From Telmatocola sphagniphila (GTDB lineage: Bacteria; Planctomycetota; Planctomycetia; Gemmatales; Gemmataceae): 32,000 nt of DNA. This document shows, piece after piece, positions 1,178 to 28,141 of this stretch (position 1 is the stretch's first letter; each line of letters begins with the position of its first letter). The notes under the pieces were generated by a model. That model was not told where the DNA came from. It did no database searches and saw only the letters and a list, made by a program, of their open reading frames with translations. The DNA lies in NCBI RefSeq assembly GCF_018398935.1, contig NZ_CP074694.1:2010001-2042000 (forward strand), written 5' to 3'. The translations under genes and the position numbers were made by a program.

Positions 1178-1828
1178 TTAAATTTCGGGGATATTGAGGA
1201 ATTCTTGAAGCATGAGTTCCCGCCGTTGATCACTGGCACAGGCGGCCAAGCGTTTCTTGTTTAGGGATTCTTTGCCGCTGGCATTAACTAATATACTTAG
1301 AGCCAATCGTTTCAGACGCGTGAAATTCTGAGGTCCATCGCCCTCTCGAACTCGGCTGTCGTCATCGCCAAACGTCACATCCAAATGCCAATGCAAACCG
1401 TTTTCTACACCCCAGTGATTGCGAACGGCCTGGGCGAAGACTTCCGCGGTCGCTTTCCGGCGGCTGATGTAATATCGAATTTCACTCGTGCTCCGACCTT
1501 TATCGCGGCGATCGGTTACCACAACCCCCACGCTCTTGAGTCCCTGCCAATCCTTCCGGGACGACAGGAATTTCAGATCCGAAAATACCCGGCAACCCCG
1601 GTACTCTTCCCGACCTTGATTCTTCTCGGTCGATTCGCACAACGTCGTCGCCACCTCCGTAAAACCCGACTCCAGATGCTTCTGAAAATGGGACGATATT
1701 TCCGCAGGCAAGCTCGGCTGATTTTCTTTCAGCGCCAAAAGGTAATCCGCTTTCCGCCGACGGATAGCCCGCGCGATTTCCTTCGGGCAGCCCATCGCGT
1801 CAATGGTCCCGATTGAACCGGCGAACCG
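1178..1828 (-). pseudogene. ISAs1-family transposase, N-terminally truncated fragment
   Basis: TIDAMGCPKEIARAIRRRKADYLLALKENQPSL ... IRYYISRRKATAEVFAQAVRNHWGVENGLHWHLDVTFGDDDSRVREG is the conserved ISAs1 (H-repeat associated) catalytic C-terminal half. The frame opens only at 1828, where IS66-derived sequence begins. Confidence 0.8.
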
Positions 1829-8533: not shown

Positions 8534-10003
8534 ATGACAGCACCAACTCCTCCCCGTGAGGTCGAGCGTTTATCCGCCCTGCGCTCGTTGGGAATACTCG
8601 ATACGCCGCCCGAACCAGAATATGATGATCTCACGAGGCTGACGGCCGCGGTGTGTGGGGTTCCCATCGCCATCGTCAGTTTCATCGATTCGTGTCGACA
8701 GTGGTTCAAGTCTCGCATTGGTCTGGATGCCACCGAGACGCACCGAGACTCTGCTTTTTGCGCCTATGCCATCCTTCAACCTGACTTATTCGTTGTCCCC
8801 GACGCCATTTCGGATGCGCGGTTCCAGAATAATCCTCTAGTGACTGATGAGCCCCGTATTAGGTTCTACGCCGGGATGCCGCTGGCTACTCCGGAAGGCC
8901 ATAACCTCGGAACGCTTTGCGTCATCGACCGGGTACCGCGGACCCTAACCAATACTCAATCGGACGCTTTACGGGTTCTGGCCAGGCATGTCGTCACGCA
9001 ATTAATGTTGAGGAGGCAACTCGAATGGTCGAAGGTCATTGAGGCCGAACTGCGGGCAAGCGAAGCGAAATTTCGCAACACGGTGGATCGACTGGCCGAG
9101 GGAGTCTTCGTCGTTGACCCACTTGCAAGAAAGATCATTGACGCAAATTTGGCTGTTCTGGCAATACTCGGCTATACCAAATCTGAATTTGTGGGGCGTT
9201 CTCCGGAAGACATCATGGCTCAGGAAATCCCGGAAGTTACCACTAGGAATTTTTCCCGAATTGACAGCGAATTGGCGACCACGGGCCGCCGCAACCTGGG
9301 GCGGAAGTGCCTTCGGGGTAAGGATGGGTCGCTAATCTCTGTGGATGTTCGGATTACCCTTATCCCCAATGACGGCGTGGGATTGCAGGCATTCGTCATT
9401 CGGGATTTGACGGAGCAGTGCGCTTACGAAGATCGACTATTCCTTTACCAAACAGAACTCGAAAATGCAAATGCCAAGCTTAAGCAGCTGGCAAACACCG
9501 ACGGGCTCACCGGGGTGCGAAATCGTTCCGCATTCAATGCCAAACTGCTCGAGGAGTACGATCGGGCCAATCGTTACAATCATCCGTTATCAGTTATTCT
9601 AATGGACGTGGACCACTTCAAAATTTTCAATGACACCTTTGGCCACCCAGCCGGGGATGAAGTTCTGAAGGCCGTAGGTCGGACTTTGCAGGAAACCGCT
9701 CGGAGTACAGATTTCGTGGCTCGTTACGGCGGTGAAGAATTCGCCGTTCTACTGCCCGACACCGAATTATCCGGTGCCATGGTTCTGGCCGAGCGTTTTC
9801 GCCGAGCCATTGCAAGCGTTTCGTGGGACAAGCGAGCTGTTACGGTAAGCGTAGGTGTCAGTACATCCACCAAGCAGACACCCGAAGCCTCGAAGTTAGT
9901 CCAAGAGGCTGATGAAGCCCTTTATCGCTCCAAAAAAAATGGACGCAATCGAGTGAATCACAGCAACTTATCGAGCCTTTCCATCAGGAACACGATAGCT
10001 TGA
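8534..10003 (+). CDS. GAF-PAS-GGDEF diguanylate cyclase
   Basis: 489 aa. GAF-like N-terminus (RLSALRSLGILDTPPEPEYDDLTRL...FYAGMPL). PAS. GGDEF domain with active-site GGEEF (nt 9728-9742) and an RxxD I-site (RSTD) five residues upstream. Confidence 0.92.
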   Translation: MTAPTPPREVERLSALRSLGILDTPPEPEYDDLTRLTAAVCGVPIAIVSFIDSCRQWFKSRIGLDATETHRDSAFCAYAILQPDLFVVPDAISDARFQNNPLVTDEPRIRFYAGMPLATPEGHNLGTLCVIDRVPRTLTNTQSDALRVLARHVVTQLMLRRQLEWSKVIEAELRASEAKFRNTVDRLAEGVFVVDPLARKIIDANLAVLAILGYTKSEFVGRSPEDIMAQEIPEVTTRNFSRIDSELATTGRRNLGRKCLRGKDGSLISVDVRITLIPNDGVGLQAFVIRDLTEQCAYEDRLFLYQTELENANAKLKQLANTDGLTGVRNRSAFNAKLLEEYDRANRYNHPLSVILMDVDHFKIFNDTFGHPAGDEVLKAVGRTLQETARSTDFVARYGGEEFAVLLPDTELSGAMVLAERFRRAIASVSWDKRAVTVSVGVSTSTKQTPEASKLVQEADEALYRSKKNGRNRVNHSNLSSLSIRNTIA

Positions 10004-13157: not shown

Positions 13158-13597
13158 CTGGGAAGGTGATTCTGCTGGTCGAAGACAACCAGGACGATGA
13201 AGAACTCGCCCTGCTCGCATTCAAGAAAGGACTAGTGCTGAACGAAGTGGTCGTCGCGAGGGACGGGGTGGAAGCGATCGATTACCTCTTTGGCACTGGC
13301 CCCCATGCCGGTCGAAATGTCAGCGAGCTGCCGCAAATGATGCTTCTCGATCTGAAATTGCCAAGGATGGACGGGCACGAGGTTCTTCGGCGGGTCCGGG
13401 CCGATCCCCGCACCCGCCGGTTGCCGGTAGTCATCCTCACTTCGTCGCGCGAGGAGGAAGATCTGATCCAAGGTTACGATTTGGGGGCCAACTCGTACGT
13501 CCGTAAGCCGGTGGATTTCACTCACTTCGTGGATGCTGTCCGCCAACTCCAGATGTATTGGCTCATACTTAACGAACCGCCTCCGGTGAGAGGTTGA
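13154..13597 (+). CDS. Single-domain response regulator (paralogue of 4834..5292)
   Basis: MTGKVILLVEDNQDDEELALLAFKK...LLDLKLPRMDG...VVILTSS...GANSYVRKPVDF...LNEPPP. ATG 13154 overlaps the kinase stop (ATGA). The longer ORF from 13085 would run inside the kinase gene. Confidence 0.9.
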   Translation: MTGKVILLVEDNQDDEELALLAFKKGLVLNEVVVARDGVEAIDYLFGTGPHAGRNVSELPQMMLLDLKLPRMDGHEVLRRVRADPRTRRLPVVILTSSREEEDLIQGYDLGANSYVRKPVDFTHFVDAVRQLQMYWLILNEPPPVRG

Positions 13598-14610
13598 TCT
13601 CCATCGAACGAACTCCAAGGCTAGTCCTGGTCGTGGACGATGATGTCAAGGTCACCGAATTGCTCCGGAGGGTGCTGGAGGCGGACGGGCACGAGGTTGT
13701 CGTTGCTTTTGACGGTCGAACGGTGGTGGATGAAGTGGCTACGCGCTGTGCCGATTTGGTAATCCTCGATATCGACATGCCCTACTCGAACGGGTTCGAG
13801 ATCTGTCGGCAAATCAAGAGTGATCCCAGGACTCGCATAATTCCGATCCTGATTCTGACAGGAGTCGCCGCCGGCGACCGCATACGAGCTTGGGAGCTTG
13901 GGGCCGACGAGTTCCTGACCAAGCCGTTTAAGCCACAGGAAGTCGCGGCCCGCGCGCGTTCTCTCCTACGCCATAAGGATCTGGTGGACGCACTAGACTC
14001 GGCGGAATCCGTAGTCTTCAGCTTGGTCCGCGCCTTGGAAGGGAAATCTCCGTACACCCATGGTCATTCGGGGCGGGTGATGCAATACGCTCTGGCTCTT
14101 GCGAAATCGTTTGGCCTTAGCGAGGCCGATATGGATATCTTACGTCGCGGAGTCTTGCTCCACGATATCGGCAAGATCAGTACACCCGATGTGATTCTCA
14201 ACAAGCCGGGGCAACTCACGCCCGAGGAAATTGAAGTGATTCGGTTGCATCCCATCGAGGGGGCCAGGATCGTCGGGCCGCTTCGCTCGGCCAGAGACGC
14301 AATTCCACTAATCCGTTGGCATCACGAACGCATGGATGGCAAGGGCTATCCGGATGGTTTGATGGGCGGCATGATCCCACTGTCGGTCCGAGTGCTGTCA
14401 GTGGCGGATATGTACGATGCTCTTTCTAGCGACCGTCCCTACCGCTCGGCGATGACACACAATCAATGCCAGGAAGTAATGGTGGAGAACGCGAAGTCCG
14501 GCGGACTTGATCCTGAGTTGGTTCGCGCCTTCTTTAAGTGCTTCACTGGGCGAATAGGCGCGGCGTCCGTGGCCGAACCGAAGGGGATGGCATCCGAATT
14601 TCCGCGCTAG
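13594..14610 (+). CDS. Response regulator with HD-GYP domain (putative c-di-GMP phosphodiesterase)
   Basis: 338 aa. REC (LVLVVDDD...ILDIDMPYSNG...ILTG...TKPF). HD-GYP (HGHSGRV...LLHDIGK...HPIEG...WHHERMDGKGYPDG). The TTG start overlaps the upstream stop (TTGA). Confidence 0.9.
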   Translation: MISIERTPRLVLVVDDDVKVTELLRRVLEADGHEVVVAFDGRTVVDEVATRCADLVILDIDMPYSNGFEICRQIKSDPRTRIIPILILTGVAAGDRIRAWELGADEFLTKPFKPQEVAARARSLLRHKDLVDALDSAESVVFSLVRALEGKSPYTHGHSGRVMQYALALAKSFGLSEADMDILRRGVLLHDIGKISTPDVILNKPGQLTPEEIEVIRLHPIEGARIVGPLRSARDAIPLIRWHHERMDGKGYPDGLMGGMIPLSVRVLSVADMYDALSSDRPYRSAMTHNQCQEVMVENAKSGGLDPELVRAFFKCFTGRIGAASVAEPKGMASEFPR

Positions 14611-18288: not shown

Positions 18289-19836
18289 TTAAATCGCGGT
18301 TTTGAGTTCTTTCGGGAACTCTTTGATGCGGATACGAACGGCCGCCGCCATCACCGCATTGCCTTTATCCGTCACGTGATAGCGATGCGCCCGCGGGACT
18401 TTCCGAATCAATCCATGAGCGCGCAACCTTCCCAATTGTCGCGAGACTCGTTGCGTTTGCCGACGCCGTTCAGCGGCATCCCGGGCGGGCTCGTTCAACG
18501 CTTTCAGGATGTCGTGGTTGCGAAACCCATTGATGCGATTATCGCCGCATAAGACAGCCAGGAATAGCTTCTGTTCTTCGGCGTGCATCAAGTTCAAGCC
18601 GCGTCGCTTCCGGTTACCCAGAGAGACGGGTTGACTCAGTTGGTCGAGTTGACGCACGGTGACCGAAGGAGCGTCCACAACGGCCAAAGCCTCGAGATAG
18701 CGTCGATTCGAAGCGCGGGCGACTTCGAGGTAGCGATAGAAATTAGACACGCCTTTGTTCATGGGGCACCAGGCCATTTTTTCGACCCCTTTGCGGATGC
18801 ATCGACGGCGGACGTGGAACTCGCCTGGCTGGTTGATTACTGTTTCAATGCGGAGAATCCGTTCGAATTTGTCGTACATTTTCAGCCAATTGCCTTTCAT
18901 GCGGTGCTTGACGCGTGTGCCCGGTGCCCGTTTCTTGCGGCCCAGAGTAAGAATTTCTCCGTCGAATTGAGGATAGAGCTTGCGTCCCAGGAATTTCATA
19001 AGGTCGTCGGCAGAGAACTGTTGAATCGAGTGATCGACCAGACGCGGGTAAAGAGCTTGTAAGTCTTCACGACTTCGGAACAAAACGTCCGTGCTGTACT
19101 CGGCTCGATCGATCACCCAGTAGTATTGGCAGCGGTTCAGCCAGTCTTTTTTCAATAGCGGATTGGCCCGGCGGACCCAACGGTCGAGAATTTTGATCCA
19201 ATTCAAATGGGCAAAGCGATCGGCCAGACGTTGAGCGGCTTCGGGATTGTCGAGTTGAACGAAGGCATTATCGCTTTGAAGGAAGCCGATCTGCTTTTCG
19301 TTCATCTGGCGGGCCAGCCAGTCGTGACCGTTGACGTAGACTTGGACGCTGTAAGGAAAGAAGGTTTGGATGCGGACATGGATCAGTCCGAACTCGGGAT
19401 CGAGAGAATAGAAATAGACGACGCGTTGCGGGCGAGACGTGAAGTACAATTCCGGTCGATCCTTGCCGGGACGCAGCTTGACGCCGCGACCGGTTTCCAT
19501 GCAGCACAGCACGGCGACCAGTCCTTCCTTTAGACTGCGTTTGGCAATCTCCTCGCGGATGATCTGCTCTTTGGTGTGCTCCCCTTGGAGAAACTGATAA
19601 GGAGCACCGGCTTCGGCGGCGACTCGTTTGCCATGTTCCACCAGTTCTTCGGACAGACCTTCCAGGAAGGGAACGAAGTCTTTGCGACGCATGCCCAGTC
19701 CGCTATCGCAGAGACGGTGGAGATCTCCATTCTTGAAAAAGGGAAGATATCCTTTGAAAATCACGCGGTCGTGACATTCCAGAACGGATAGAATGGAATC
19801 GGCGAACTTCTTCGTAAATGAGTTGATCGTCGGCAT
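18289..19836 (-). CDS. Conserved-looking hypothetical protein, 515 aa (function unknown; C-terminal winged-helix-like segment)
   Basis: Long uninterrupted ORF with host-like codon composition. The C-terminal RQLGRLRAHGLIRKVPRAHRYHVTDKG resembles a wHTH recognition segment. I could identify no catalytic motif. Confidence 0.7.
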   Translation of the reverse strand: MPTINSFTKKFADSILSVLECHDRVIFKGYLPFFKNGDLHRLCDSGLGMRRKDFVPFLEGLSEELVEHGKRVAAEAGAPYQFLQGEHTKEQIIREEIAKRSLKEGLVAVLCCMETGRGVKLRPGKDRPELYFTSRPQRVVYFYSLDPEFGLIHVRIQTFFPYSVQVYVNGHDWLARQMNEKQIGFLQSDNAFVQLDNPEAAQRLADRFAHLNWIKILDRWVRRANPLLKKDWLNRCQYYWVIDRAEYSTDVLFRSREDLQALYPRLVDHSIQQFSADDLMKFLGRKLYPQFDGEILTLGRKKRAPGTRVKHRMKGNWLKMYDKFERILRIETVINQPGEFHVRRRCIRKGVEKMAWCPMNKGVSNFYRYLEVARASNRRYLEALAVVDAPSVTVRQLDQLSQPVSLGNRKRRGLNLMHAEEQKLFLAVLCGDNRINGFRNHDILKALNEPARDAAERRRQTQRVSRQLGRLRAHGLIRKVPRAHRYHVTDKGNAVMAAAVRIRIKEFPKELKTAI

Positions 19837-19911: not shown

Positions 19912-19947
19912 GCGGGCATTGCCCGCGTTAAGAAATATTCGTATATA
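19912..19947 (+). promoter_or_regulatory. 15-bp perfect palindrome overlapping a sigma70-like promoter candidate
   Basis: The palindrome gcgggcattgcccgc spans 19912-19926. TTGCCC (19919-19924), a 17-nt spacer and TATATA (19942-19947) lie about 65 nt upstream of the CBS-HEPN start. The site sits in the divergent intergenic region. Confidence 0.3.
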
Positions 19948-20011
19948 TGTCTAAAATCCCCGAAGTCCCGCTCTATGGCCCACAGAGATTTTTACACCCG
20001 GAACCCCACCC

Positions 20012-20863
20012 GTGGACAGTTTCTTACCAGGAACCGAACCAAGCCTGAATGGCCAACCGCGTGAGCCCCACTCCTTTACAAATGTCGTCTCACTCATCGA
20101 CCTCGCTCTGACACAGTACAAAGACGTTGTTACTGTCACGCCAGCCACGTCCGCTCGGGAAGCGATTCGGCTCCTCACTCAACACCGTTTCTCGCAAGTC
20201 CCCGTTGTAGACCGGGGTCAGATCGCTGGGTTATTCTCCTACCGATCCTTTTCACTCGCCGTAGTGAACGCCTTTGATCTGCCAGGGCGACACAGGGCAG
20301 ATGGACTGTCTGTCTGGGAGTGCATTGAGAGTCCCAGCTTTGTGCAAGGAACTGACGAGTTCCAACGTTTGTTCGATCTACTCGATCATCGCGATGCGGT
20401 TCTTGTTGGAACACAGGGGCGGTGTAATGGCATCGTAACCGCGATGGGCGTGTTGCGGTATCTTTTTGAGACGACAAGCCCATTCCTGCTTGTGGCCGAA
20501 ATCGAACTCTCCCTCCGAGCAGTCATCGAACTTTCCCTGGATCCTGATGAACTGAGCCTTTTCGCCAGCTCGAGTCTCGTGCATTATACACCGGAGAAAA
20601 TGCCGACGAAGCTTGAAGATATGACCTTCAGCGATTACGTCGTACTGATTGGGCACGGCAGCAACTGGGACCGTTTCAATCGAGTCTTTCATGGGGACCG
20701 TGCACTCACACATGCGAAATTGAAACAGCTCAAAGATCTGAGAAATGATGTCTTCCATTTCCGCCGAAGACTGGCCGACAGGGACCGCGACATCTTGACC
20801 GAGTCGCGTGATTGGATGCGTCGATTGGTAACACTTGCTGGCGGACTGGAGGACTGGACATGA
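20012..20863 (+). CDS. CBS-pair domain protein fused to a Swt1-like HEPN domain (predicted ligand-regulated RNase)
   Basis: 283 aa, GTG start. Two CBS motifs (VVTVTPATSAREAIRLLTQHRFSQVPVVDRGQIAGLFS; SFVQGTDEFQRLFDLLDHRDAVLVGTQGRCNGIVTAMGVLRYL). The C-terminal half carries AEIELSLRAVIE...MTFSDYVVLIGHGSNWDRF...LKDLRNDVFHF, with the HEPN Rx4H motif (R244-H249, nt 20741-20758). Confidence 0.8.
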   Translation: MDSFLPGTEPSLNGQPREPHSFTNVVSLIDLALTQYKDVVTVTPATSAREAIRLLTQHRFSQVPVVDRGQIAGLFSYRSFSLAVVNAFDLPGRHRADGLSVWECIESPSFVQGTDEFQRLFDLLDHRDAVLVGTQGRCNGIVTAMGVLRYLFETTSPFLLVAEIELSLRAVIELSLDPDELSLFASSSLVHYTPEKMPTKLEDMTFSDYVVLIGHGSNWDRFNRVFHGDRALTHAKLKQLKDLRNDVFHFRRRLADRDRDILTESRDWMRRLVTLAGGLEDWT

Positions 20864-21021: not shown

Positions 21022-23472
21022 ATGAGTAAACCCCACGAATCCGAATCCGTCCCTTCTAACGCCAACCTAGGAAACGATCCTGAAAAGCTCATAAGTTGGT
21101 TCCAGTCCGACGTAAAACCGTTCCTCGAAAACATCCAACCTGAAAAGGTCGGCCCTCTCGAGGCCGATGCACATAACTTAGAGGCGGTAGCCCAAACGGC
21201 TGATCAAGAACTAACCGTCTGTTTTCTAGGTAACGCTGGAGTTGGTAAGAGTACCCTCATCAACTCGTTAGTGGCCGGCAAGGACGTCATCCTGCCTGCT
21301 GGCGGCATCGGCCCGCTTACCGCTCAGGCGCTTGCTGTACGATATGCCCCCCAACGCCGGTTCGAGGTTGAGTATCATCCGCCCCAGAACTTATGGCAAC
21401 TCACGTTTGCCCTTGAGAGTGTCTTGCAAAGGGAGGCCCGCCGGGATCGGTCGGTGAGTGGAGAAGACGAACTGAAGCAGGAGAGTGGCAACGAGACCCG
21501 TACCGAATCGGAGTTAGGGGCCGTTAGCGGTCCTCAGCTCGGTAAAACTCTCGAAGAGCTAAAACGGCAGGCTCAACTGCTCGTTACGGGCGATCAAGAC
21601 CAGCAGACTGATCTCGACTACCTCGTCGACACTCTCCGAGAAGCGACAGCAAACAAACGGATCTGGGGGACTACCCCACGTCCTGAGGATGAAGCACGTG
21701 TGCGACAGATCCGCGAGGCCCTTTCCTGGGCGTCAGAAACTGGCAAGCCGTGTACTTTCACGGCCGAGGATGCAGGGTTCCAGGCCGCACTAGGCCACCA
21801 CGCATCCGGGTTCCTTGCCCCGCTTATAAAGGAACTACGCGTCTACTGGGATAGCCCACTTCTATCGGAAGGGGTGACTCTCGTCGATCTCCCCGGTGTC
21901 GGGATCGTCAACGACGTATACGAGGCGACAACTAGCAAGTGGATACGCGAACGGGCTCGAGCCGTCATTCTGGTGGTTGAGACCCGCGGGCTGAACGCGA
22001 CTCACGCTGAACTCCTTCGTAGTAGCGGCTTTCTCAACCGACTTTTATACGCGGCAGACGATCCAACTGCCGACCCCGTGGTACTCATGGTGGTTGTAGT
22101 AAAGGGAGACTTAGTTGCCGAAGAGGAGTACATCAAAGATCGGTCACGGAAGAAGCGCGAGCACTTCGCCGACGTCCGCTCAAAGTCGATTGAGCACATT
22201 CGGCATCAACTCCGAAGTCAACTCGAGGAAGTGTGGGCATCCGATGATGTAACCCGTGAGCGGACACGTAAGGGTGTCATCGAGACGATACTTGCCGGAC
22301 TCCAGGTGCATCCGGTATCCGCACCTCAGTACCGTAAGCTGCTAGAGGCCGATGAGGACGACCGTGCCTTCATCAGTGAATCCCATCAGAGTGGAATCCC
22401 GGGATTAGTTGCCGGCCTGACCGATCTGGCTCGCAGCCAGCGGCAGGCGCAAGCCCTTCGCCTGCGGGAGGTGGGCGGGGATTTTTTTCAACGTGTCCTG
22501 GCCACAGTCCGGGTGAATCAGGCGAAGTGGCGTGAGGAGGCTCGGGCAAGTCAGGAGGCGGAGCGGCTTCGCAGTGAGCTCGATGAGTTCCTGGAGCCGC
22601 TCCGACGGGAGTTTCATGCTCGGCAAGGGGCATTCCGCGAGTTCCTCCGTGAGACGTTACCGTCTAACATTCGGGAACTCGTAGAGAAGGCCAAGGGCCA
22701 GTCGAGCCGTGACATTGAGAAGTATTTGAACACACTACAGGACGCCCATTGGGCCACTCTGCGAGCTGCGGTTCGAAAAGGTGGTGCATTTGACGGCGCT
22801 CGCAACATTAACCTTCCACTTGATTTCGCAATCCGTTTCGAAGAGCCAATCGCTGAAGTGTGGGGGAAATCAGTCCTCAAAGAGATCCGCGGGCGTACTC
22901 AGCAGTTCGCCCGGGACTGCGTTACGTTCGTCGATCAGGTGGTAGAGTGGGCAAAAAAGCAAGGGGCGAGGGTCCAGACCCAGCTTGTCCTCGCCCAGCG
23001 GGAAGAGATCATTGCCGACGCAAAGCGGTTGGAGGCGGTGGGCCGGGAAATGGTTAACGAGCTCCGGGACCAGGTGAAGAACACCCTTATACGCAAGGTC
23101 GAGGGGCCTATCAGGAAAAAGTGTGAGAAGTTTGTAAAGGATAACGAGGATCGTGGGAGTGGGGTAAAGGTTCGAATCCTCGGCTTATTTAACCAGCTGG
23201 CGCGGGATGCGACCGAGGCCGCCAGTGTCCCTGCTATCGAAATCCTAACCGCGCAGTTCAGGGAGGTAGAAAAGGAGATCCTGGTTGTCTTTGAGCAGCA
23301 TACGGATCCGCTAACATCAGCTGCTGACTCGATCGTCGCTTCACACGAACTCCGTGTCAAGCGAAGTGACGCGCAGAAACGAAAGAAGGTATTGGCTGAC
23401 GTCGACGCAGTATTGACCGCGTGCCCGTGGCCCTTGCCAGCAGAAACCAGTAACGAGGGAGGTGGTCAGTGA
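21022..23472 (+). CDS. Dynamin-superfamily large GTPase (bacterial dynamin-like protein)
   Basis: 816 aa. G1 GNAGVGKS (nt 21229-21252). G2 region GPLT. G3 LVDLPG. G4 VVKGD. A roughly 190-aa insert lies between G2 and G3. The C-terminal region of about 450 aa is highly charged and helical. I saw no strongly hydrophobic paddle or TM segment. Confidence 0.85.
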   Translation: MSKPHESESVPSNANLGNDPEKLISWFQSDVKPFLENIQPEKVGPLEADAHNLEAVAQTADQELTVCFLGNAGVGKSTLINSLVAGKDVILPAGGIGPLTAQALAVRYAPQRRFEVEYHPPQNLWQLTFALESVLQREARRDRSVSGEDELKQESGNETRTESELGAVSGPQLGKTLEELKRQAQLLVTGDQDQQTDLDYLVDTLREATANKRIWGTTPRPEDEARVRQIREALSWASETGKPCTFTAEDAGFQAALGHHASGFLAPLIKELRVYWDSPLLSEGVTLVDLPGVGIVNDVYEATTSKWIRERARAVILVVETRGLNATHAELLRSSGFLNRLLYAADDPTADPVVLMVVVVKGDLVAEEEYIKDRSRKKREHFADVRSKSIEHIRHQLRSQLEEVWASDDVTRERTRKGVIETILAGLQVHPVSAPQYRKLLEADEDDRAFISESHQSGIPGLVAGLTDLARSQRQAQALRLREVGGDFFQRVLATVRVNQAKWREEARASQEAERLRSELDEFLEPLRREFHARQGAFREFLRETLPSNIRELVEKAKGQSSRDIEKYLNTLQDAHWATLRAAVRKGGAFDGARNINLPLDFAIRFEEPIAEVWGKSVLKEIRGRTQQFARDCVTFVDQVVEWAKKQGARVQTQLVLAQREEIIADAKRLEAVGREMVNELRDQVKNTLIRKVEGPIRKKCEKFVKDNEDRGSGVKVRILGLFNQLARDATEAASVPAIEILTAQFREVEKEILVVFEQHTDPLTSAADSIVASHELRVKRSDAQKRKKVLADVDAVLTACPWPLPAETSNEGGGQ

Positions 23473-26216
23473 GTCCACTAGTAACGCGTGAAGGCCAGAA
23501 TTCGCCCGCAACAATCCTCCGCAAATTCGAGGACTTCGGATTCCCGTCTGTCGACCTTGTGAACCCCCCCCGGAGGTTCTGGGCCGACAGAGATGCGCCA
23601 GGACCGGTGGTCGAGACGCAGGTCGACGCTCGCCGGGTAACTCCGCTCCCAAGCCCCTCCGGTCTTCTTGCGAACCTTCCAGTGGATGATAACTGGCCAG
23701 CCCAAACTCGGCGTAGCCTCGCCCGGTTGTGGGCTTACTATCTTGTGTGTGAAGACCCGCTCCGAAGACTCGACGCCCGGCCCGTTAACACACTTGCCCA
23801 TCAGGTTAGCCTAGTGCAACATGTGCTCGAGACCGAGCACCTCCGGCGCGTCCTTGTGGCGGATGAGGTCGGGTTAGGAAAGACGGTCGAGGCAGGATTA
23901 ATAATCCAGCACCTGCTCGAACAGTCACCGGGTCTGCGGGTACTGTATCTCGCTCCTGCCCGGTTAGTCACAAACGTATGGCGCGAATTTGAACGGCTGG
24001 GATTACACTTCCGGCAATGGTCGGCGAGTGAAAATACAGCCAATCTGACTGACCCACTCGTCGTTGCGAGTATCCATCGGGCGGTTCATGGCAGCAATGT
24101 CGAACGAGTGCTCAGCACTTGGCCCTGGGACGTGATCGTGGTAGACGAATGCCACCACTTGTCAGACTGGGCGGCGGGAGGCGGTGACCCACGAGAAAAG
24201 TTTAGACTGGTGAGGGATTTGATCGCTCATCAGCCTTCAGGTGCTCGAGTGATCTTTCTGAGCGGCACTCCGCATCAAGGGCATGCCAACCGGTTCGAGA
24301 ATCTGCTCGGATTGTTGCGAAAACCGGACGAACCAGCCGAGGCGTTGGCCGGACGAGTTATCTACAGGACGAAGGAGGACGTTCGCGACTGGAACGGTAA
24401 CCCGCTTTTCCCGACTAGGCAAGTAAACCCCCCAATCCTAGTAGACTTAGGACCCGAATACCGGGAATGGGTGCAGCACATACACGACTTCTTCCGACCA
24501 CCGCCCGGCGACCCAGGCCGGGCAGATGCCAAGCGGCGTGCGGCTGGATGGCGATGCGCGCAGGCGCTCCAGTGGGCAACGTCTAGCCCGCAGGCTGGTC
24601 TCGGTTATCTAGTAAGACAGGCGATTCGAGCACGCTGCGACCTTGGCGATGAGCCGCTCGAGCAGGCTATTGCCGCACTCAGACCATACCGCCGCGGACC
24701 GGTCGACGAACCTGTTGAAAAACTCTTTAAGCGAATCCAGCGTGAGGTCGGTCCGTCTAACGAAACGGACGAAATCGAGGACATTGAGGAGGAGGGCCAG
24801 AACGAAACGCGTGAGTACGGACGCGCACTAACCAGGCTATTAGCTGAGGGGGTTCGCCTAGTCAGGTCATCGGCGGATGAGAAATGGGCAATCGTAAAGA
24901 GGGAGTTGCTAGATCCTCACGGTGACGAAAAGGTAGTGCTATTTGCCCAGCCAATCGAAACGGTGATGGCGATTGCCCAATACCTAGAGCGAACGAGTGG
25001 AGCTCGCCCGGCTCTAATCATCGGCGGCCAAAGTGAAGCCGAGCGGGAAGCCGAAGTAGCAGCATTCTGGCGGCCTGATGGGCCACGGTTTCTAGTGTCA
25101 TCGCGCGCTGGTGGCGAGGGGATCAACTTGCAGATCGCTCGGCGTTTAATTCACATTGATGTTCCGTGGAATCCGATGGACATGGAGCAGCGAGTCGGTC
25201 GTGTCCACCGGTTTGGATCACGGCGAACCATTATTGTGGACACTGTAGTTGTTACCGACAGCCGGGAGGCTCACGCCTATCGAGTCGCTCGCCAGAAGTT
25301 GGAGTTGATCGCCCGCGCCCTCGTACCTTCGGAACGATTCGAGGCTGTGTTCTCTCGGGTGATGGGGCTAGTTCCCCCGGAAGAACTACAGGATGTTTTG
25401 ATACAAGCGGCCGCCGGGCCACTCTCCGACCGGGATCAGGATGCAATTAATCGGATGGTTCAAGAAGGTTTCGGGGCCTGGCAGGCCTTCCATGATCGGT
25501 TCGCCGATAGACAGCGACAGATTCGACAACAAGATCCTGGGCTGGCGACCTGGGAGGATGTAAGCCGATTTCTTGCGGAATATGGAAACGTCGAGACTCG
25601 TGAAGGGTTCAGAGCGCTTCGATTCACTCGGACGGGCGATCAAGTCGATCCAATCGAACAGCCGGTGAATGTGGTAAACCTCGGTGACCAAGAGCAGTAC
25701 GTCTGCGGAGACGTCGGTGGTGCGCCCGTCTTCGGGCCGGACGGCAAACAAGCTCGTCAGCTTGGTCTCAACCTTCCTCCCGTTGCAGAACTTCTTCGCC
25801 GTCTTGCATTCGCTACACCAGCGGGCGCCGCCGTGCTAAGGGTGACTAACGAACTTACACTTCCGGGCGTGGACAACTCCACGCCATTAGGAGTTTTGAT
25901 CTTTGCACGGCAGACGGTTCGCCCGGACCCCCGTTCTGGACACATCGAGATCGGGTGTTCGCTGCCATGTTACATCCTCACCGCTGATAGTAACCCTGTA
26001 CCTGTCGAAGGGCCTCTGAAGCGGGCTCTCCTCTACGCCCTATTTGACGCCACCGTCGCGCGGGTCAGGCCAGAGCCGGTTGACCAGTTGATTGCAGCTA
26101 TCGGAAGGTCTGAAACCGAGATCGGGAATCAGCTCCGTTTTCCGTCGGAACAGGAAATGCAGTCTGGAGTGCGACATGCCGTCACTCCGCTTCTTGCTGC
26201 CTTGGTACTCAGGTAA
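23469..26216 (+). CDS. SNF2-family (SWI2/SNF2, RapA-like) helicase/ATPase with unassigned N- and C-terminal regions
   Basis: 915 aa. Motif I ADEVGLGKT (nt 23862-23885). Motif II VVDECHHL (DECH at 24144-24155). Motif III FLSGTPHQG. Motif V SRAGGEGINLQ. Motif VI WNPMDMEQRVGRVHRFG. The GTG start overlaps the GTPase stop (GTGA). Confidence 0.9.
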   Translation: MSPLVTREGQNSPATILRKFEDFGFPSVDLVNPPRRFWADRDAPGPVVETQVDARRVTPLPSPSGLLANLPVDDNWPAQTRRSLARLWAYYLVCEDPLRRLDARPVNTLAHQVSLVQHVLETEHLRRVLVADEVGLGKTVEAGLIIQHLLEQSPGLRVLYLAPARLVTNVWREFERLGLHFRQWSASENTANLTDPLVVASIHRAVHGSNVERVLSTWPWDVIVVDECHHLSDWAAGGGDPREKFRLVRDLIAHQPSGARVIFLSGTPHQGHANRFENLLGLLRKPDEPAEALAGRVIYRTKEDVRDWNGNPLFPTRQVNPPILVDLGPEYREWVQHIHDFFRPPPGDPGRADAKRRAAGWRCAQALQWATSSPQAGLGYLVRQAIRARCDLGDEPLEQAIAALRPYRRGPVDEPVEKLFKRIQREVGPSNETDEIEDIEEEGQNETREYGRALTRLLAEGVRLVRSSADEKWAIVKRELLDPHGDEKVVLFAQPIETVMAIAQYLERTSGARPALIIGGQSEAEREAEVAAFWRPDGPRFLVSSRAGGEGINLQIARRLIHIDVPWNPMDMEQRVGRVHRFGSRRTIIVDTVVVTDSREAHAYRVARQKLELIARALVPSERFEAVFSRVMGLVPPEELQDVLIQAAAGPLSDRDQDAINRMVQEGFGAWQAFHDRFADRQRQIRQQDPGLATWEDVSRFLAEYGNVETREGFRALRFTRTGDQVDPIEQPVNVVNLGDQEQYVCGDVGGAPVFGPDGKQARQLGLNLPPVAELLRRLAFATPAGAAVLRVTNELTLPGVDNSTPLGVLIFARQTVRPDPRSGHIEIGCSLPCYILTADSNPVPVEGPLKRALLYALFDATVARVRPEPVDQLIAAIGRSETEIGNQLRFPSEQEMQSGVRHAVTPLLAALVLR

Positions 26217-26267: not shown

Positions 26268-26650
26268 GGGTTCTGTCGCACAGTTGGTGACGAGCGTTGG
26301 TTAGAATGTCTTTAGGAATTCATTCTGACAGGACGCAGCATCATGACTATGCAGGACCTCTTTCCTCAAGAGGCCGGTTTGGTCGTTACCGATTTCGCTC
26401 TCACTCCGGAACTCTTGGCAATCGCCATTCAATCCACCAAGCCCCATTCTGCCTGTCCCAACTGCGGTCGAATATCGGACCGCATTCACAGCCATTATCA
26501 GCGTGTATTGGCGGACTTACCCTGGCAAGCTCGCCGAGTACTACTCAGGATCGAACTGCGAAAATTTCGATGCATGAATGCCGCTTGTCCCAGGCAAATC
26601 TTCTGTGAACGGCTACCTCATGTATTTGCTTCCCATGCTCGAACAACTGG
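26268..26650 (+). mobile_element. ISL3-family IS, 5' remnant (IR plus transposase N-terminal zinc-finger region)
   Basis: ORF 26343.. reads ...CPNCGRISDRIHSHYQRVLADLPWQARRVLLRIELRKFRCMNAACPRQIFCERLPHVFASHARTT. This is the zf-ISL3 signature (CPxCG...RxLxDLPxxGxxVxLxxxxRRFxCxNxxCxxxxFxERLP). Homology ends at about 26650. The GG-initiated putative IR ggttctgtcgcacagttgg at about 26268 resembles the end at 858. Confidence 0.75.
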
Positions 26651-27030
26651 TAATCCTTGTCGAAAACGGGCCCAGGTACTCATTAAAATCCTTGTCGAAA
26701 ACGGGCCCACCCCTCAACGTCTTCCTGTAAACTGGTTTCCCCTGGAGGGATCCCAGACTGCAGGAGGCAGAGGATGGTCAAGGTGGACGAATACGCGAGA
26801 ATACGTCAGGCTCATCGAATAGATAAGATGGGCATCCGTGCACTGGCCCGGACTTTTCATCATTCCCGGCGGAAGATCCGTCAGATTCTCGACGAGCCGG
26901 AACCCAAGCCGTACCAGCGACGAGCCATGCCATCGCTGCTCGACTCTTTCACGGCGATTATTGAGGAGATCCTGCGGAGCGATCGAGAAGCTCCCCGCAA
27001 GCAGCGACACACCGTCGCTTACTATGAACA
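26651..27030 (+). mobile_element. IS21-family IS, left end with subterminal direct repeats and istA 5' fragment
   Basis: Two copies of aatccttgtcgaaaacgggccca contain a TGTCG... terminus-like motif. They are followed by an IstA N-terminal HTH reading MVKVDEYARIRQAHRIDKMGIRALARTFHHSRRKIRQILDEPEPKPYQRR..PSLLDSF...APRKQRHT. IstA homology stops near 27020-27035. Confidence 0.7.
26652..26709 (+). repeat. 23-bp direct repeat x2 (IS21-type multiple terminal repeats)
   Basis: aatccttgtcgaaaacgggccca occurs at 26652-26674 and 26687-26709, both perfect. Confidence 0.85.
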
Positions 27031-28141
27031 AGGTAATCCGGAATATCGGCGATTGATTGCAGAACTTGAAGGATTGACCGTCTCCTCGGCAGAGGACAAG
27101 CTTTTCAAAGGAAATGCTCTGGCACTCCACTACCCCGCGGACGGACTGCGGCTGATAGACCAAGCGCTAGCGGTACGCCCCTCCACTCTCGGACACCTGC
27201 TTCGGGCCGATGCGCGGTCAGAGCTTTCCCAAGTTGTAGGTGATGTTGCTAGTGCCGAGGACGCCGTTTCCTCCACAGAACTCGCTAAGCAACTCTTGCC
27301 TGACAACCCTGCCCGATTGGGGAAAAACTGCACCGCCCATTTGACTGCTATGGCGGCGTATGAAAGAGCCGGTAATTCGACAAAAGGTGCCGAACACTTG
27401 ACTACGGCGGCCGCTGACGCCGCGAAAATGGCTCGCTTCGAAAGAAATCCGACAGCCATCCTCTATCGCTACGATGTGGCCGCTATTATTGACGGGCTTG
27501 AAGGCAAACTGGACCGTACGTCGGAACTGCGTGCTGCACGTTCCGGTCGCCACGACCTGCTCTTGACGATCTACGAGGCGGACAACTGGCTTGCCCTGGG
27601 CAACGATCAAGAAGCCGAGAAAGTGGCGAGCGAACTCCCAAGTTCAGGAACCGGATCCTTAAGAGTCTTGGCGGCCCTGGGGAGAATAGACGGTCGCACT
27701 GTTGCTCTAAATGCCATTGATCGTTATGCCGGTCCTGATTCGAAATGGAAAGCCCGTTATACAGCCGCTCCCTTCCTATTCGCGTTGGATCGGGCGCGAT
27801 GTAGCACTCTCCTTAAGCCGCTTCTCCAGGAAAATGACCCTATCGCCCGACCGGACGAACTCGCCGAGTCCAAACGAAACCTCTCGATGTTGGCGGGTAC
27901 GATCTCGGAATCGGATCTGCTATCCGCTCCGGCTCGTGGCCCGGTGGAGCTGTGCAACCGTCAATACTTTGTTGCCTGGAAGCGAATGGGGGAAGGAGAT
28001 CGCGAGGGGGCTATCAAAGCATTTGAAGAGTGCTATCGTTACAAGTTGGTCGATCACGCCGCGTGGGTGCACGCTCGGATCATCCTCATCCGAATGAAGG
28101 ATCCGAATTGGCCGCAGGCCCTTTTGACGAAAAAGCATTGA
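26774..28141 (+). CDS. Chimeric ORF: IS21 IstA N-terminal HTH (about 82 aa) fused in frame to a TPR-like helical-repeat protein C-terminus
   Basis: 455-aa open frame. The first about 82 aa are IstA-like. The rest (...LCNRQYFVAWKRMGEGDREGAIKAFEECYRYKLVDHAAWVHARIILIRMKD) looks like TPR or Sel1-type helical repeats. It is probably a truncated host gene captured behind an IS fragment. Expression is unknown. Confidence 0.55.
   Translation: MVKVDEYARIRQAHRIDKMGIRALARTFHHSRRKIRQILDEPEPKPYQRRAMPSLLDSFTAIIEEILRSDREAPRKQRHTVAYYEQGNPEYRRLIAELEGLTVSSAEDKLFKGNALALHYPADGLRLIDQALAVRPSTLGHLLRADARSELSQVVGDVASAEDAVSSTELAKQLLPDNPARLGKNCTAHLTAMAAYERAGNSTKGAEHLTTAAADAAKMARFERNPTAILYRYDVAAIIDGLEGKLDRTSELRAARSGRHDLLLTIYEADNWLALGNDQEAEKVASELPSSGTGSLRVLAALGRIDGRTVALNAIDRYAGPDSKWKARYTAAPFLFALDRARCSTLLKPLLQENDPIARPDELAESKRNLSMLAGTISESDLLSAPARGPVELCNRQYFVAWKRMGEGDREGAIKAFEECYRYKLVDHAAWVHARIILIRMKDPNWPQALLTKKH

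Follow-up and report, generated by a model that had tools for sequence, protein, structure and literature searches.

A gene of Telmatocola sphagniphila that joins a pair of CBS domains to a putative HEPN RNase domain probably encodes, judging from its sequence and its gene neighbors, the effector RNase of an anti-phage cassette of three genes, the other two of which encode a dynamin-like GTPase and an SNF2-type helicase. The gene lies on the plus strand at positions 20012..20863 of the 32-kb stretch of contig NZ_CP074694.1 that we analyzed (hereafter the window). Its nearest characterized relative is DS-11, a one-protein CBS + HEPN anti-phage system of Escherichia coli (WP_000257686.1, 365 amino acids [aa]) from the DefensePredictor study (DeWeirdt et al., bioRxiv 2025 / Science 2026; PMC13092281). 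In DS-11, the Y157A substitution in the CBS part and the R330A and H335A substitutions in the HEPN part each lead to loss of defense; an AF3 model has Y157 touching adenine, an adenine-nucleotide-type ligand was proposed, and the authors' HHpred search assigned residues 252-359 to HEPN_Swt1 with a probability of 0.98 (PMC13092281). We recovered the DS-11 gene from an E. coli chromosome (locus L009). By BLASTP, the window protein is 26% identical to DS-11 over 215 aa (E = 2e-18), in an alignment that spans both domains, and pairwise alignment pairs R244 and H249 with DS-11 R330 and H335, and F60 (20189..20191, plus strand) with Y157. The NCBIfam model NF053863 (DS11_antiphage, CBS domain-containing anti-phage protein) matched residues 35-265 with an E value of 3.8e-30, and it also matched 36 of 36 aligned homologues, at best with an E value of 5.7e-38.

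In both proteins, a single chain carries a CBS pair and, C-terminal to it, a Swt1-like HEPN domain, and the window protein has the Arg and His that DS-11 requires, an aromatic residue at the Y157 position, and the E-x3-R of the first HEPN helix. The two differ in that DS-11 is a single-gene system with Asp at the equivalent of residue 146, whereas the window gene has GTPase and helicase genes next to it and encodes Gly at this site. A sequence-only reading of this DNA had described the fusion as an unusual one, a description that does not hold, as a 2013 paper had already predicted the architecture (PMC3710099), and DS-11 has since been validated as a case of it (PMC13092281). Anantharaman et al. 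described CBS(+HD)-HEPN proteins in a Swt1-like family, for example alr3009 and Pelobacter gi 118580987, and proposed that a nucleotide ligand sensed by the CBS part regulates the HEPN RNase or RNA stability (PMC3710099). The domain logic and the idea of a ligand-regulated RNase are shared with our protein; those predictions differ in being computational, in including an extra HD domain in some cases, and in having no helicase or GTPase linkage, and we liken the window protein to them by description rather than by sequence. What is new here is the link to DS-11, the prevalent coupling to helicases with its frequent DISARM association, and the GTPase-helicase variant with an altered CBS site. 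In the literature, we found no paper besides that on DefensePredictor that ties CBS-HEPN proteins to phage, and a tblastn search of phage genomes with the CBS-HEPN protein gave no match.

The open reading frame (ORF) in the window's ORF list runs from a GTG at 20012 to a TGA at 20863 and encodes 283 aa. This full-length reading is supported by the homologues: 202 were found at E ≤ 1e-3, most of them about 283 aa long, 308 clusters (50% identity) reach E ≤ 1e-30, and more than 100 homologues of this length can be aligned with the 283-aa frame from one end to the other. The public T. sphagniphila annotation (P0021) contains the C-terminal 164 aa only and starts at an internal TTG within the second CBS motif, so that the public record does not show the CBS pair. 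That annotation, together with the GTG lacking a strong upstream signal and the insertion sequence (IS) elements that flank the cassette, would suit a decaying gene from which only the 164-aa C-terminal fragment is made, or one whose HEPN domain is catalytically dead and merely binds RNA. We consider such decay very improbable, as the 283-aa frame is open and collinear with its homologues, a start at the TTG would leave only half of the second CBS motif, and the catalytic and CBS core residues are all intact with the exception of D146. A weak sigma-70-like promoter match (TTAAGA-18-TAAAAT, 9 of 12 consensus positions) lies at 19928..19957 on the plus strand, 55 nucleotides (nt) 5′ of the GTG; it comes from a consensus scan only and carries no evidence of function.

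We read the helical C-terminal domain (residues ~156-276, 20477..20839, plus strand) as a putative Swt1-like HEPN RNase. The sequence-only reading had made the same proposal, and it is supported through the homology of this half of the protein to the HEPN half of DS-11 together with the HHpred result of the DS-11 authors; direct assignment to a HEPN family is weak. An AlphaFold 2 (AF2) model of this domain by itself (residues 152-283) is all-helical, with six helices, a predicted local distance difference test score of 88 and a predicted template modeling score of 0.83. The ORF and the motifs quoted in the sequence-only reading proved correct: EIELSLR occupies residues 163-169 in the first helix (20498..20518, plus strand, with E163, E165, and R169), SNWDRF residues 217-222, and R244 (nt 20741-20743) and H249 (nt 20756-20758) bound the putative catalytic Rx4H motif, R244-N245-D-V-F-H249 (20741..20758, plus strand), where the penultimate long helix ends. 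Residue conservation was counted in 115 full-length homologues. R244, N245, H249, W219, R266, and W268 are each present in all 115, so that the conservation of R244 and H249, on which the HEPN call had been made to depend, is borne out; E163 and E165 are also kept in 115 of 115 and R169 in 114. In a joint alignment that includes DS-11, E165, R169, R244, N245, and H249 remain invariant. In the AF2 model, the Rx4H motif closes the helix formed by residues 230-248, with a loop and a further helix (256-276) coming after it, and the HEPN definition places Rx4H at such a helix end (PMC3710099). R244-x4-H249 thus has the motif position of a HEPN domain on the modeled helices, and a conserved acidic residue (E163/E165) is found N-terminal to it, but in the first modeled helix rather than in helix 2. 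The window protein does not reach the gathering threshold of HEPN_Swt1 (PF18731, 27.5 bits). Sub-threshold matches to this family were seen in 9 of 36 homologues (best E = 0.017), among them residues 197-258 of P0108 against profile positions 47-103, and sub-threshold matches to DUF4145 in 5 of 36. A profile of the C-terminal domain found no relative among PDB sequences, and a homologue search with a HEPN-only profile returned fragments of the CBS-HEPN family only and no other HEPN families.

The N-terminal half contains two tandem CBS motifs, as the sequence-only reading had recognized, and these form one complete Bateman module (residues ~23-153, 20078..20470, plus strand) that follows ~22 poorly modeled residues. 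Pfam CBS matched residues 37-80 (E = 6.3e-12, 46 bits versus a cut-off of 24), and a family profile gave matches to solved CBS pairs that cover residues 27-153, MJ1225 (5e-16) among them, and to the gamma subunit of AMP-activated protein kinase (AMPK gamma) over residues 29-149. The AF2 secondary structure agrees with a CBS pair, and in Foldseek searches the AlphaFold model matched many ligand-bound CBS pairs with a probability of 1.00, including the cystathionine beta-synthase regulatory domain with S-adenosylmethionine, CbpB with cyclic di-AMP, AcuB with diadenosine tetraphosphate or AMP, and DarB. The ribose-phosphate-type motifs of the pair are G73-L-F-S76-Y-R-S79 and G140-I-V-T143-A-M-G146. 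In AMPK gamma and other CBS-adenosine complexes, the Asp of the motif G-h-h-[ST]-x-x-[DN] binds the ribose hydroxyls, and it is the x-S-x-L-P-V segment in the partner motif that forms the adenine pocket; DS-11 Y157 and F60 are, we assume, located in this adenine-pocket segment. Position 60 is aromatic in 114 of the 115 homologues (F in 77, Y in 37, V in 1). The first ribose-type motif, GLFSYRS, has Ser instead of Asp in all homologues. The second reads GIVTAMG in the window protein and so departs from G-h-h-[ST]-x-x-[DN], whereas 95 of the 115 homologues have G-h-h-T-x-x-D. Residue 146 (20447..20449, plus strand) is accordingly Asp in 95 and Gly in 20, and these 20 comprise the window protein plus the 19 full-length sequences closest to it, which are at least 60% identical (hereafter the window clade). 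In the joint alignment, Asp is present in DS-11 and in the rhizobial, archaeal, and actinobacterial homologues. If the ribose and adenine roles given above hold, the site implicated in DS-11 is altered exactly in the clade that has switched partner genes. At the site where an Asp would be expected to bind the ribose, this clade has Gly; control therefore probably no longer lies wholly with a free ligand and has passed, at least in part, to the GTPase and helicase partners. The small-molecule gating that the sequence-only reading had put forward thus stands in part only: it can be argued by analogy with DS-11, and G146 probably weakens it in its simple form for the window protein.

The order CBS-HEPN, GTPase, helicase is kept in four of four window-clade loci (the window, L001, L002, and L012). 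In each, a gap of 84-163 nt separates the CBS-HEPN gene from a GTPase gene of 816-819 codons, and the helicase, ~915 aa in length, overlaps the GTPase stop by 4 nt. Seven further short contigs, paired by their identical lengths between the two sets of homologues, carry close homologues of both the CBS-HEPN protein and the GTPase. This conserved linkage, to the GTPase here and to helicases throughout the family, had been overlooked in the sequence-only reading. In the window, the second cassette gene (21022..23472, plus strand) encodes a dynamin-like GTPase of 816 aa with the G1 motif GNAGVGKS (Pfam Dynamin_N, E = 8.9e-11); it is 100% identical to a T. sphagniphila 'dynamin family protein'. The third gene (23469..26216, plus strand) encodes an SNF2/DrmD/DpdE-like helicase of 915 aa that matches Pfam Helicase_C, DEAD, ResIII, and SNF2-rel_dom and has intact motifs I (GLGKT), II (DECH), and VI (QRVGRVHRFG). 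PADLOC DrmD and BrxH models also match it, and its matches to NCBIfam DpdE and DrmD are below the cut-offs (DrmD, 174 bits versus 610).

Two of the related loci suggest how the cassette arrived. In L001 (11590-11718) and L012 (15241-15388), the last ~46 codons of hsdR are repeated directly after the helicase gene, and this duplicated end, which brackets all three genes, suggests that a single unit made up of the CBS-HEPN, GTPase, and helicase genes entered a type I restriction gene at its 3′ end. The helicase is followed in these two loci by other genes and not by IS remnants, as it is in the window, where such remnants mark the right cassette edge (26343..28141, plus strand; Zn_ribbon_ISL3 and an IS21-family N-terminus). 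A search for terminal repeats bounding the window cassette found none. The gene after the helicase in L001 (11787-12962, 392 aa) and L012 (15437-16612) encodes a protein that ends in ...LNELRRLVGHP, which is R-x4-H-like and may belong to a second HEPN-type domain; this gene is absent from the window.

Outside the window clade, the CBS-HEPN gene has another partner. We analyzed 38 loci from more than 10 phyla, taken from a one-genome-per-species scan, by calling ORFs and running phmmer and hmmsearch. An intact superfamily 2 (SF2) helicase of 417-569 aa is encoded immediately 3′ of the CBS-HEPN gene in 33 of them, and in 21 of these 33 its start lies 4 nt before the CBS-HEPN stop; the others comprise three loci with a fragmented helicase, one truncated locus, and one locus of the window clade (L012). 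These small helicases are mutually homologous and DrmD/BrxH/HmaA/DpdE-like, and most keep motifs I and II. In about 9 of the 33, the Walker A lysine is missing, or motif II as well, as with GLGSVWT in L005; loci with an altered Walker A motif are L005, L017, L018, L019, L022, L023, L031, and L041, and their products may be pseudo-helicases in which the C-terminal RecA lobe alone is retained. The cluster representative P0423 combines CBS, HEPN, and helicase parts in a single chain. Further fusions join the family to DUF4268 (P0374 and P0382), an N-terminal HARE-HTH (P0394), or RAMA (P0373), all of which are restriction-associated domains.

In 18 of the 38 loci (L013, L016, L020-L025, L028-L030, L032, L033, L035, L038, L039, L041, and L047), the CBS-HEPN-helicase pair lies directly 3′, on the same strand, of a methyltransferase gene of the Eco57I/MmeI type (1300-1550 aa) or the DUF1156 type. 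A DrmD-like SNF2 helicase is also present in 15 of these 18, where the pair forms the 3′ end of a DISARM-like operon. The partner helicases are of the kind found in DISARM (DrmD), BREX (BrxH), and Dpd (DpdE) systems. The window cassette itself is distinct from DISARM, which is defined by DrmA, DrmB, and a methyltransferase with DrmC, DrmD, or DrmE: of these, the window has the DrmD-like helicase only, and no methyltransferase, DUF1998/MZB protein, or PLD protein is encoded in its 32 kb. Conversely, the PADLOC models of DISARM have no CBS-HEPN component.

Several results weigh against the reading of this gene as the RNase effector of a defense cassette. For the window protein and its clade, RNase activity, ligand binding, and defense are predictions only. 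The 105 bits scored against NF053863 compare with an equivalog cut-off of 260 bits, and the window protein lacks the ~130 aa found N-terminal to the CBS pair of DS-11, a region shared in part with the Rhizobium homologue; by these sequence measures it is a distant homologue of DS-11 and not an equivalog. The window protein has no Pfam HEPN match at E ≤ 1, and the PADLOC v2 and PHROGs collections gave no match for it. The sequence-only reading had proposed a structural comparison as a check on both halves; the CBS half passed it, as described above, whereas Foldseek found no significant HEPN structure in the PDB and BFVD for the confident C-terminal-domain model and, for the full model, found CBS pairs only in the PDB. 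A CBS module with G146 may also have lost nucleotide binding. At the level of the locus, the CBS-HEPN and GTPase genes are separated in the window by a 158-nt gap, across which their cotranscription is putative, although no terminator-like site lies within it. The rest of the window consists of two-component signaling genes and is no classical defense island.

The GTPase and helicase may, moreover, be an independent system that is merely adjacent. We found 704 GTPase homologues, and in L050-L053 a GTPase (~810 aa) and helicase (~917 aa) with the same 4-nt overlap occur without a CBS-HEPN gene, adjoining type I restriction-modification, AAA_15, SIR2, reverse-transcriptase, and UvrD-like genes. 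The genes upstream of such pairs were considered as divergent CBS-HEPN genes and proved unrelated. The GTPase-helicase module matched no named system above the cut-off in PADLOC or NCBIfam, and our literature search found no paper that couples dynamin-like GTPases with SNF2 helicases in defense. Eleos (LeoA-LeoBC) shares with it a dynamin-family GTPase and a defense context; the PADLOC LeoBC match is weak (E = 5.7e-7, 27 bits) and covers the P-loop only (GTPase residues 52-91) instead of the full length, and the partner here is an SNF2 helicase and not a second dynamin.

These pairs bear on a second explanation, in which the window protein acts by itself, exactly as single-gene DS-11 does, as an abortive-infection RNase gated by a ligand, and the GTPase-helicase pair is a separate system of the same island. 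DS-11 does act as one protein, no helicase gene adjoins the homologues of E. coli, Rhizobium, and Halobaculum, GTPase-helicase pairs are widespread in loci that lack CBS-HEPN, and the gap between CBS-HEPN and GTPase genes contrasts with the overlap between GTPase and helicase genes. We nevertheless regard this explanation as unlikely. The three genes occur together in every window-clade locus or contig of sufficient length, the family from which the clade stems shows translational coupling to a helicase in 33-36 of 38 loci and, in one case, fusion with it, the duplicated hsdR end brackets all three genes, and D146 is lost exactly where the partner has changed.

A housekeeping or stress role, in which the CBS pair is an energy sensor that tunes RNA stability, or the protein is a transcriptional regulator, and phage defense plays no part, would be in line with the regulation of RNA stability proposed in 2013 (PMC3710099), with the JGI annotation of some homologues as 'predicted transcriptional regulator', and with the PAS kinases, GGDEF protein, and REC-HD protein encoded in the wider window. 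We think this improbable, more so than a self-contained RNase. The nearest characterized relative is a defense protein; the neighbors in related loci are restriction-modification, DISARM-like, PLD, GmrSD, SIR2, and retron-type genes; the family has a patchy distribution across more than 10 phyla and is flanked by mobile elements; and a Pfam search of the window protein found no DNA-binding domain. The signaling genes do correct one statement of the sequence-only reading, that no nucleotide-signal synthase is encoded nearby: a GAF-PAS-GGDEF diguanylate cyclase (8534-10003) and a REC-HD (HD_5) protein (13594-14610) are encoded ~6-10 kb upstream, among many PAS histidine kinases. Cyclic di-GMP was considered as the ligand and is unsupported, as the GGDEF and REC-HD genes are absent from L001, L002, and L012. 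A HEPN/MNT toxin-antitoxin arrangement was likewise rejected, there being no nucleotidyltransferase partner in any locus.

The window has some further features. A 515-aa ORF (18289-19836, minus strand) is divergent from the CBS-HEPN gene and belongs to no Pfam or NCBIfam family. Plasmids of Rhodococcus, Mycobacterium, and Burkholderia carry several copies of its homologues per replicon, and one of these homologues is annotated as 'ArsR family regulator'. The ORF may belong to a mobile element, and it is not syntenic in the relatives of the window locus. A DDE_Tnp_1 fragment lies near the left end of the window (1178-1795), and a perfect 23-nt direct repeat is found at 26652-26674 and 26687-26709.

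Taken together, these data lead us to propose the following scheme for the three-gene cassette. Dimerization of the CBS pairs would join two HEPN domains and create a composite Rx4H active site, and in the uninfected cell the CBS module would keep the RNase off. An infection signal would then turn the dimer on; this signal could be an adenine-nucleotide-type ligand, as proposed for DS-11, the partner NTPases meeting phage nucleic acid, or both. The active RNase would cleave cellular or phage RNA, and the resulting growth arrest or loss of phage transcripts would stop phage production. Such an effector would share with HepT/MNT, PD-T4-5, Csm6/Csx1, RnlA, and PrrC a metal-independent Rx4-6H RNase, dimerization, and an off state until infection. 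In Csm6/Csx1, a fused CARF sensor binds a nucleotide signal, whereas the window protein has a CBS pair and neither a CARF domain nor an MNT antitoxin; no signal synthase is linked to it, and it gave no significant sequence or Foldseek match to these HEPN effectors.

DS-11 is so far the only CBS-domain defense protein to have been tested experimentally, and its single-gene form in E. coli is an exception in a family of ~300 clusters (50% identity) from more than 10 phyla, whose usual members are coupled to an SF2 helicase, in one case by fusion, and often close DISARM-like operons. We tentatively suggest, as a possibility that still falls well short of an even chance, that the window cassette is a previously undescribed three-component defense system, in which a widespread GTPase-SNF2 module captured a CBS-HEPN effector whose CBS pair, with its ribose-binding Asp gone, turned from a sensor of free nucleotides into an adaptor that reads the partner NTPases, and that CBS-HEPN with a small SF2 helicase is a common effector module of DISARM-like systems. 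The family offers a handle on what triggers the activation of CBS-HEPN RNases, and on whether DISARM-like systems, whose killing mechanism is poorly understood, respond at the level of RNA. The natural Asp-to-Gly variant, together with the change of partner, would provide a ready comparison between the sensing of free nucleotides and the sensing of partner proteins by CBS domains.

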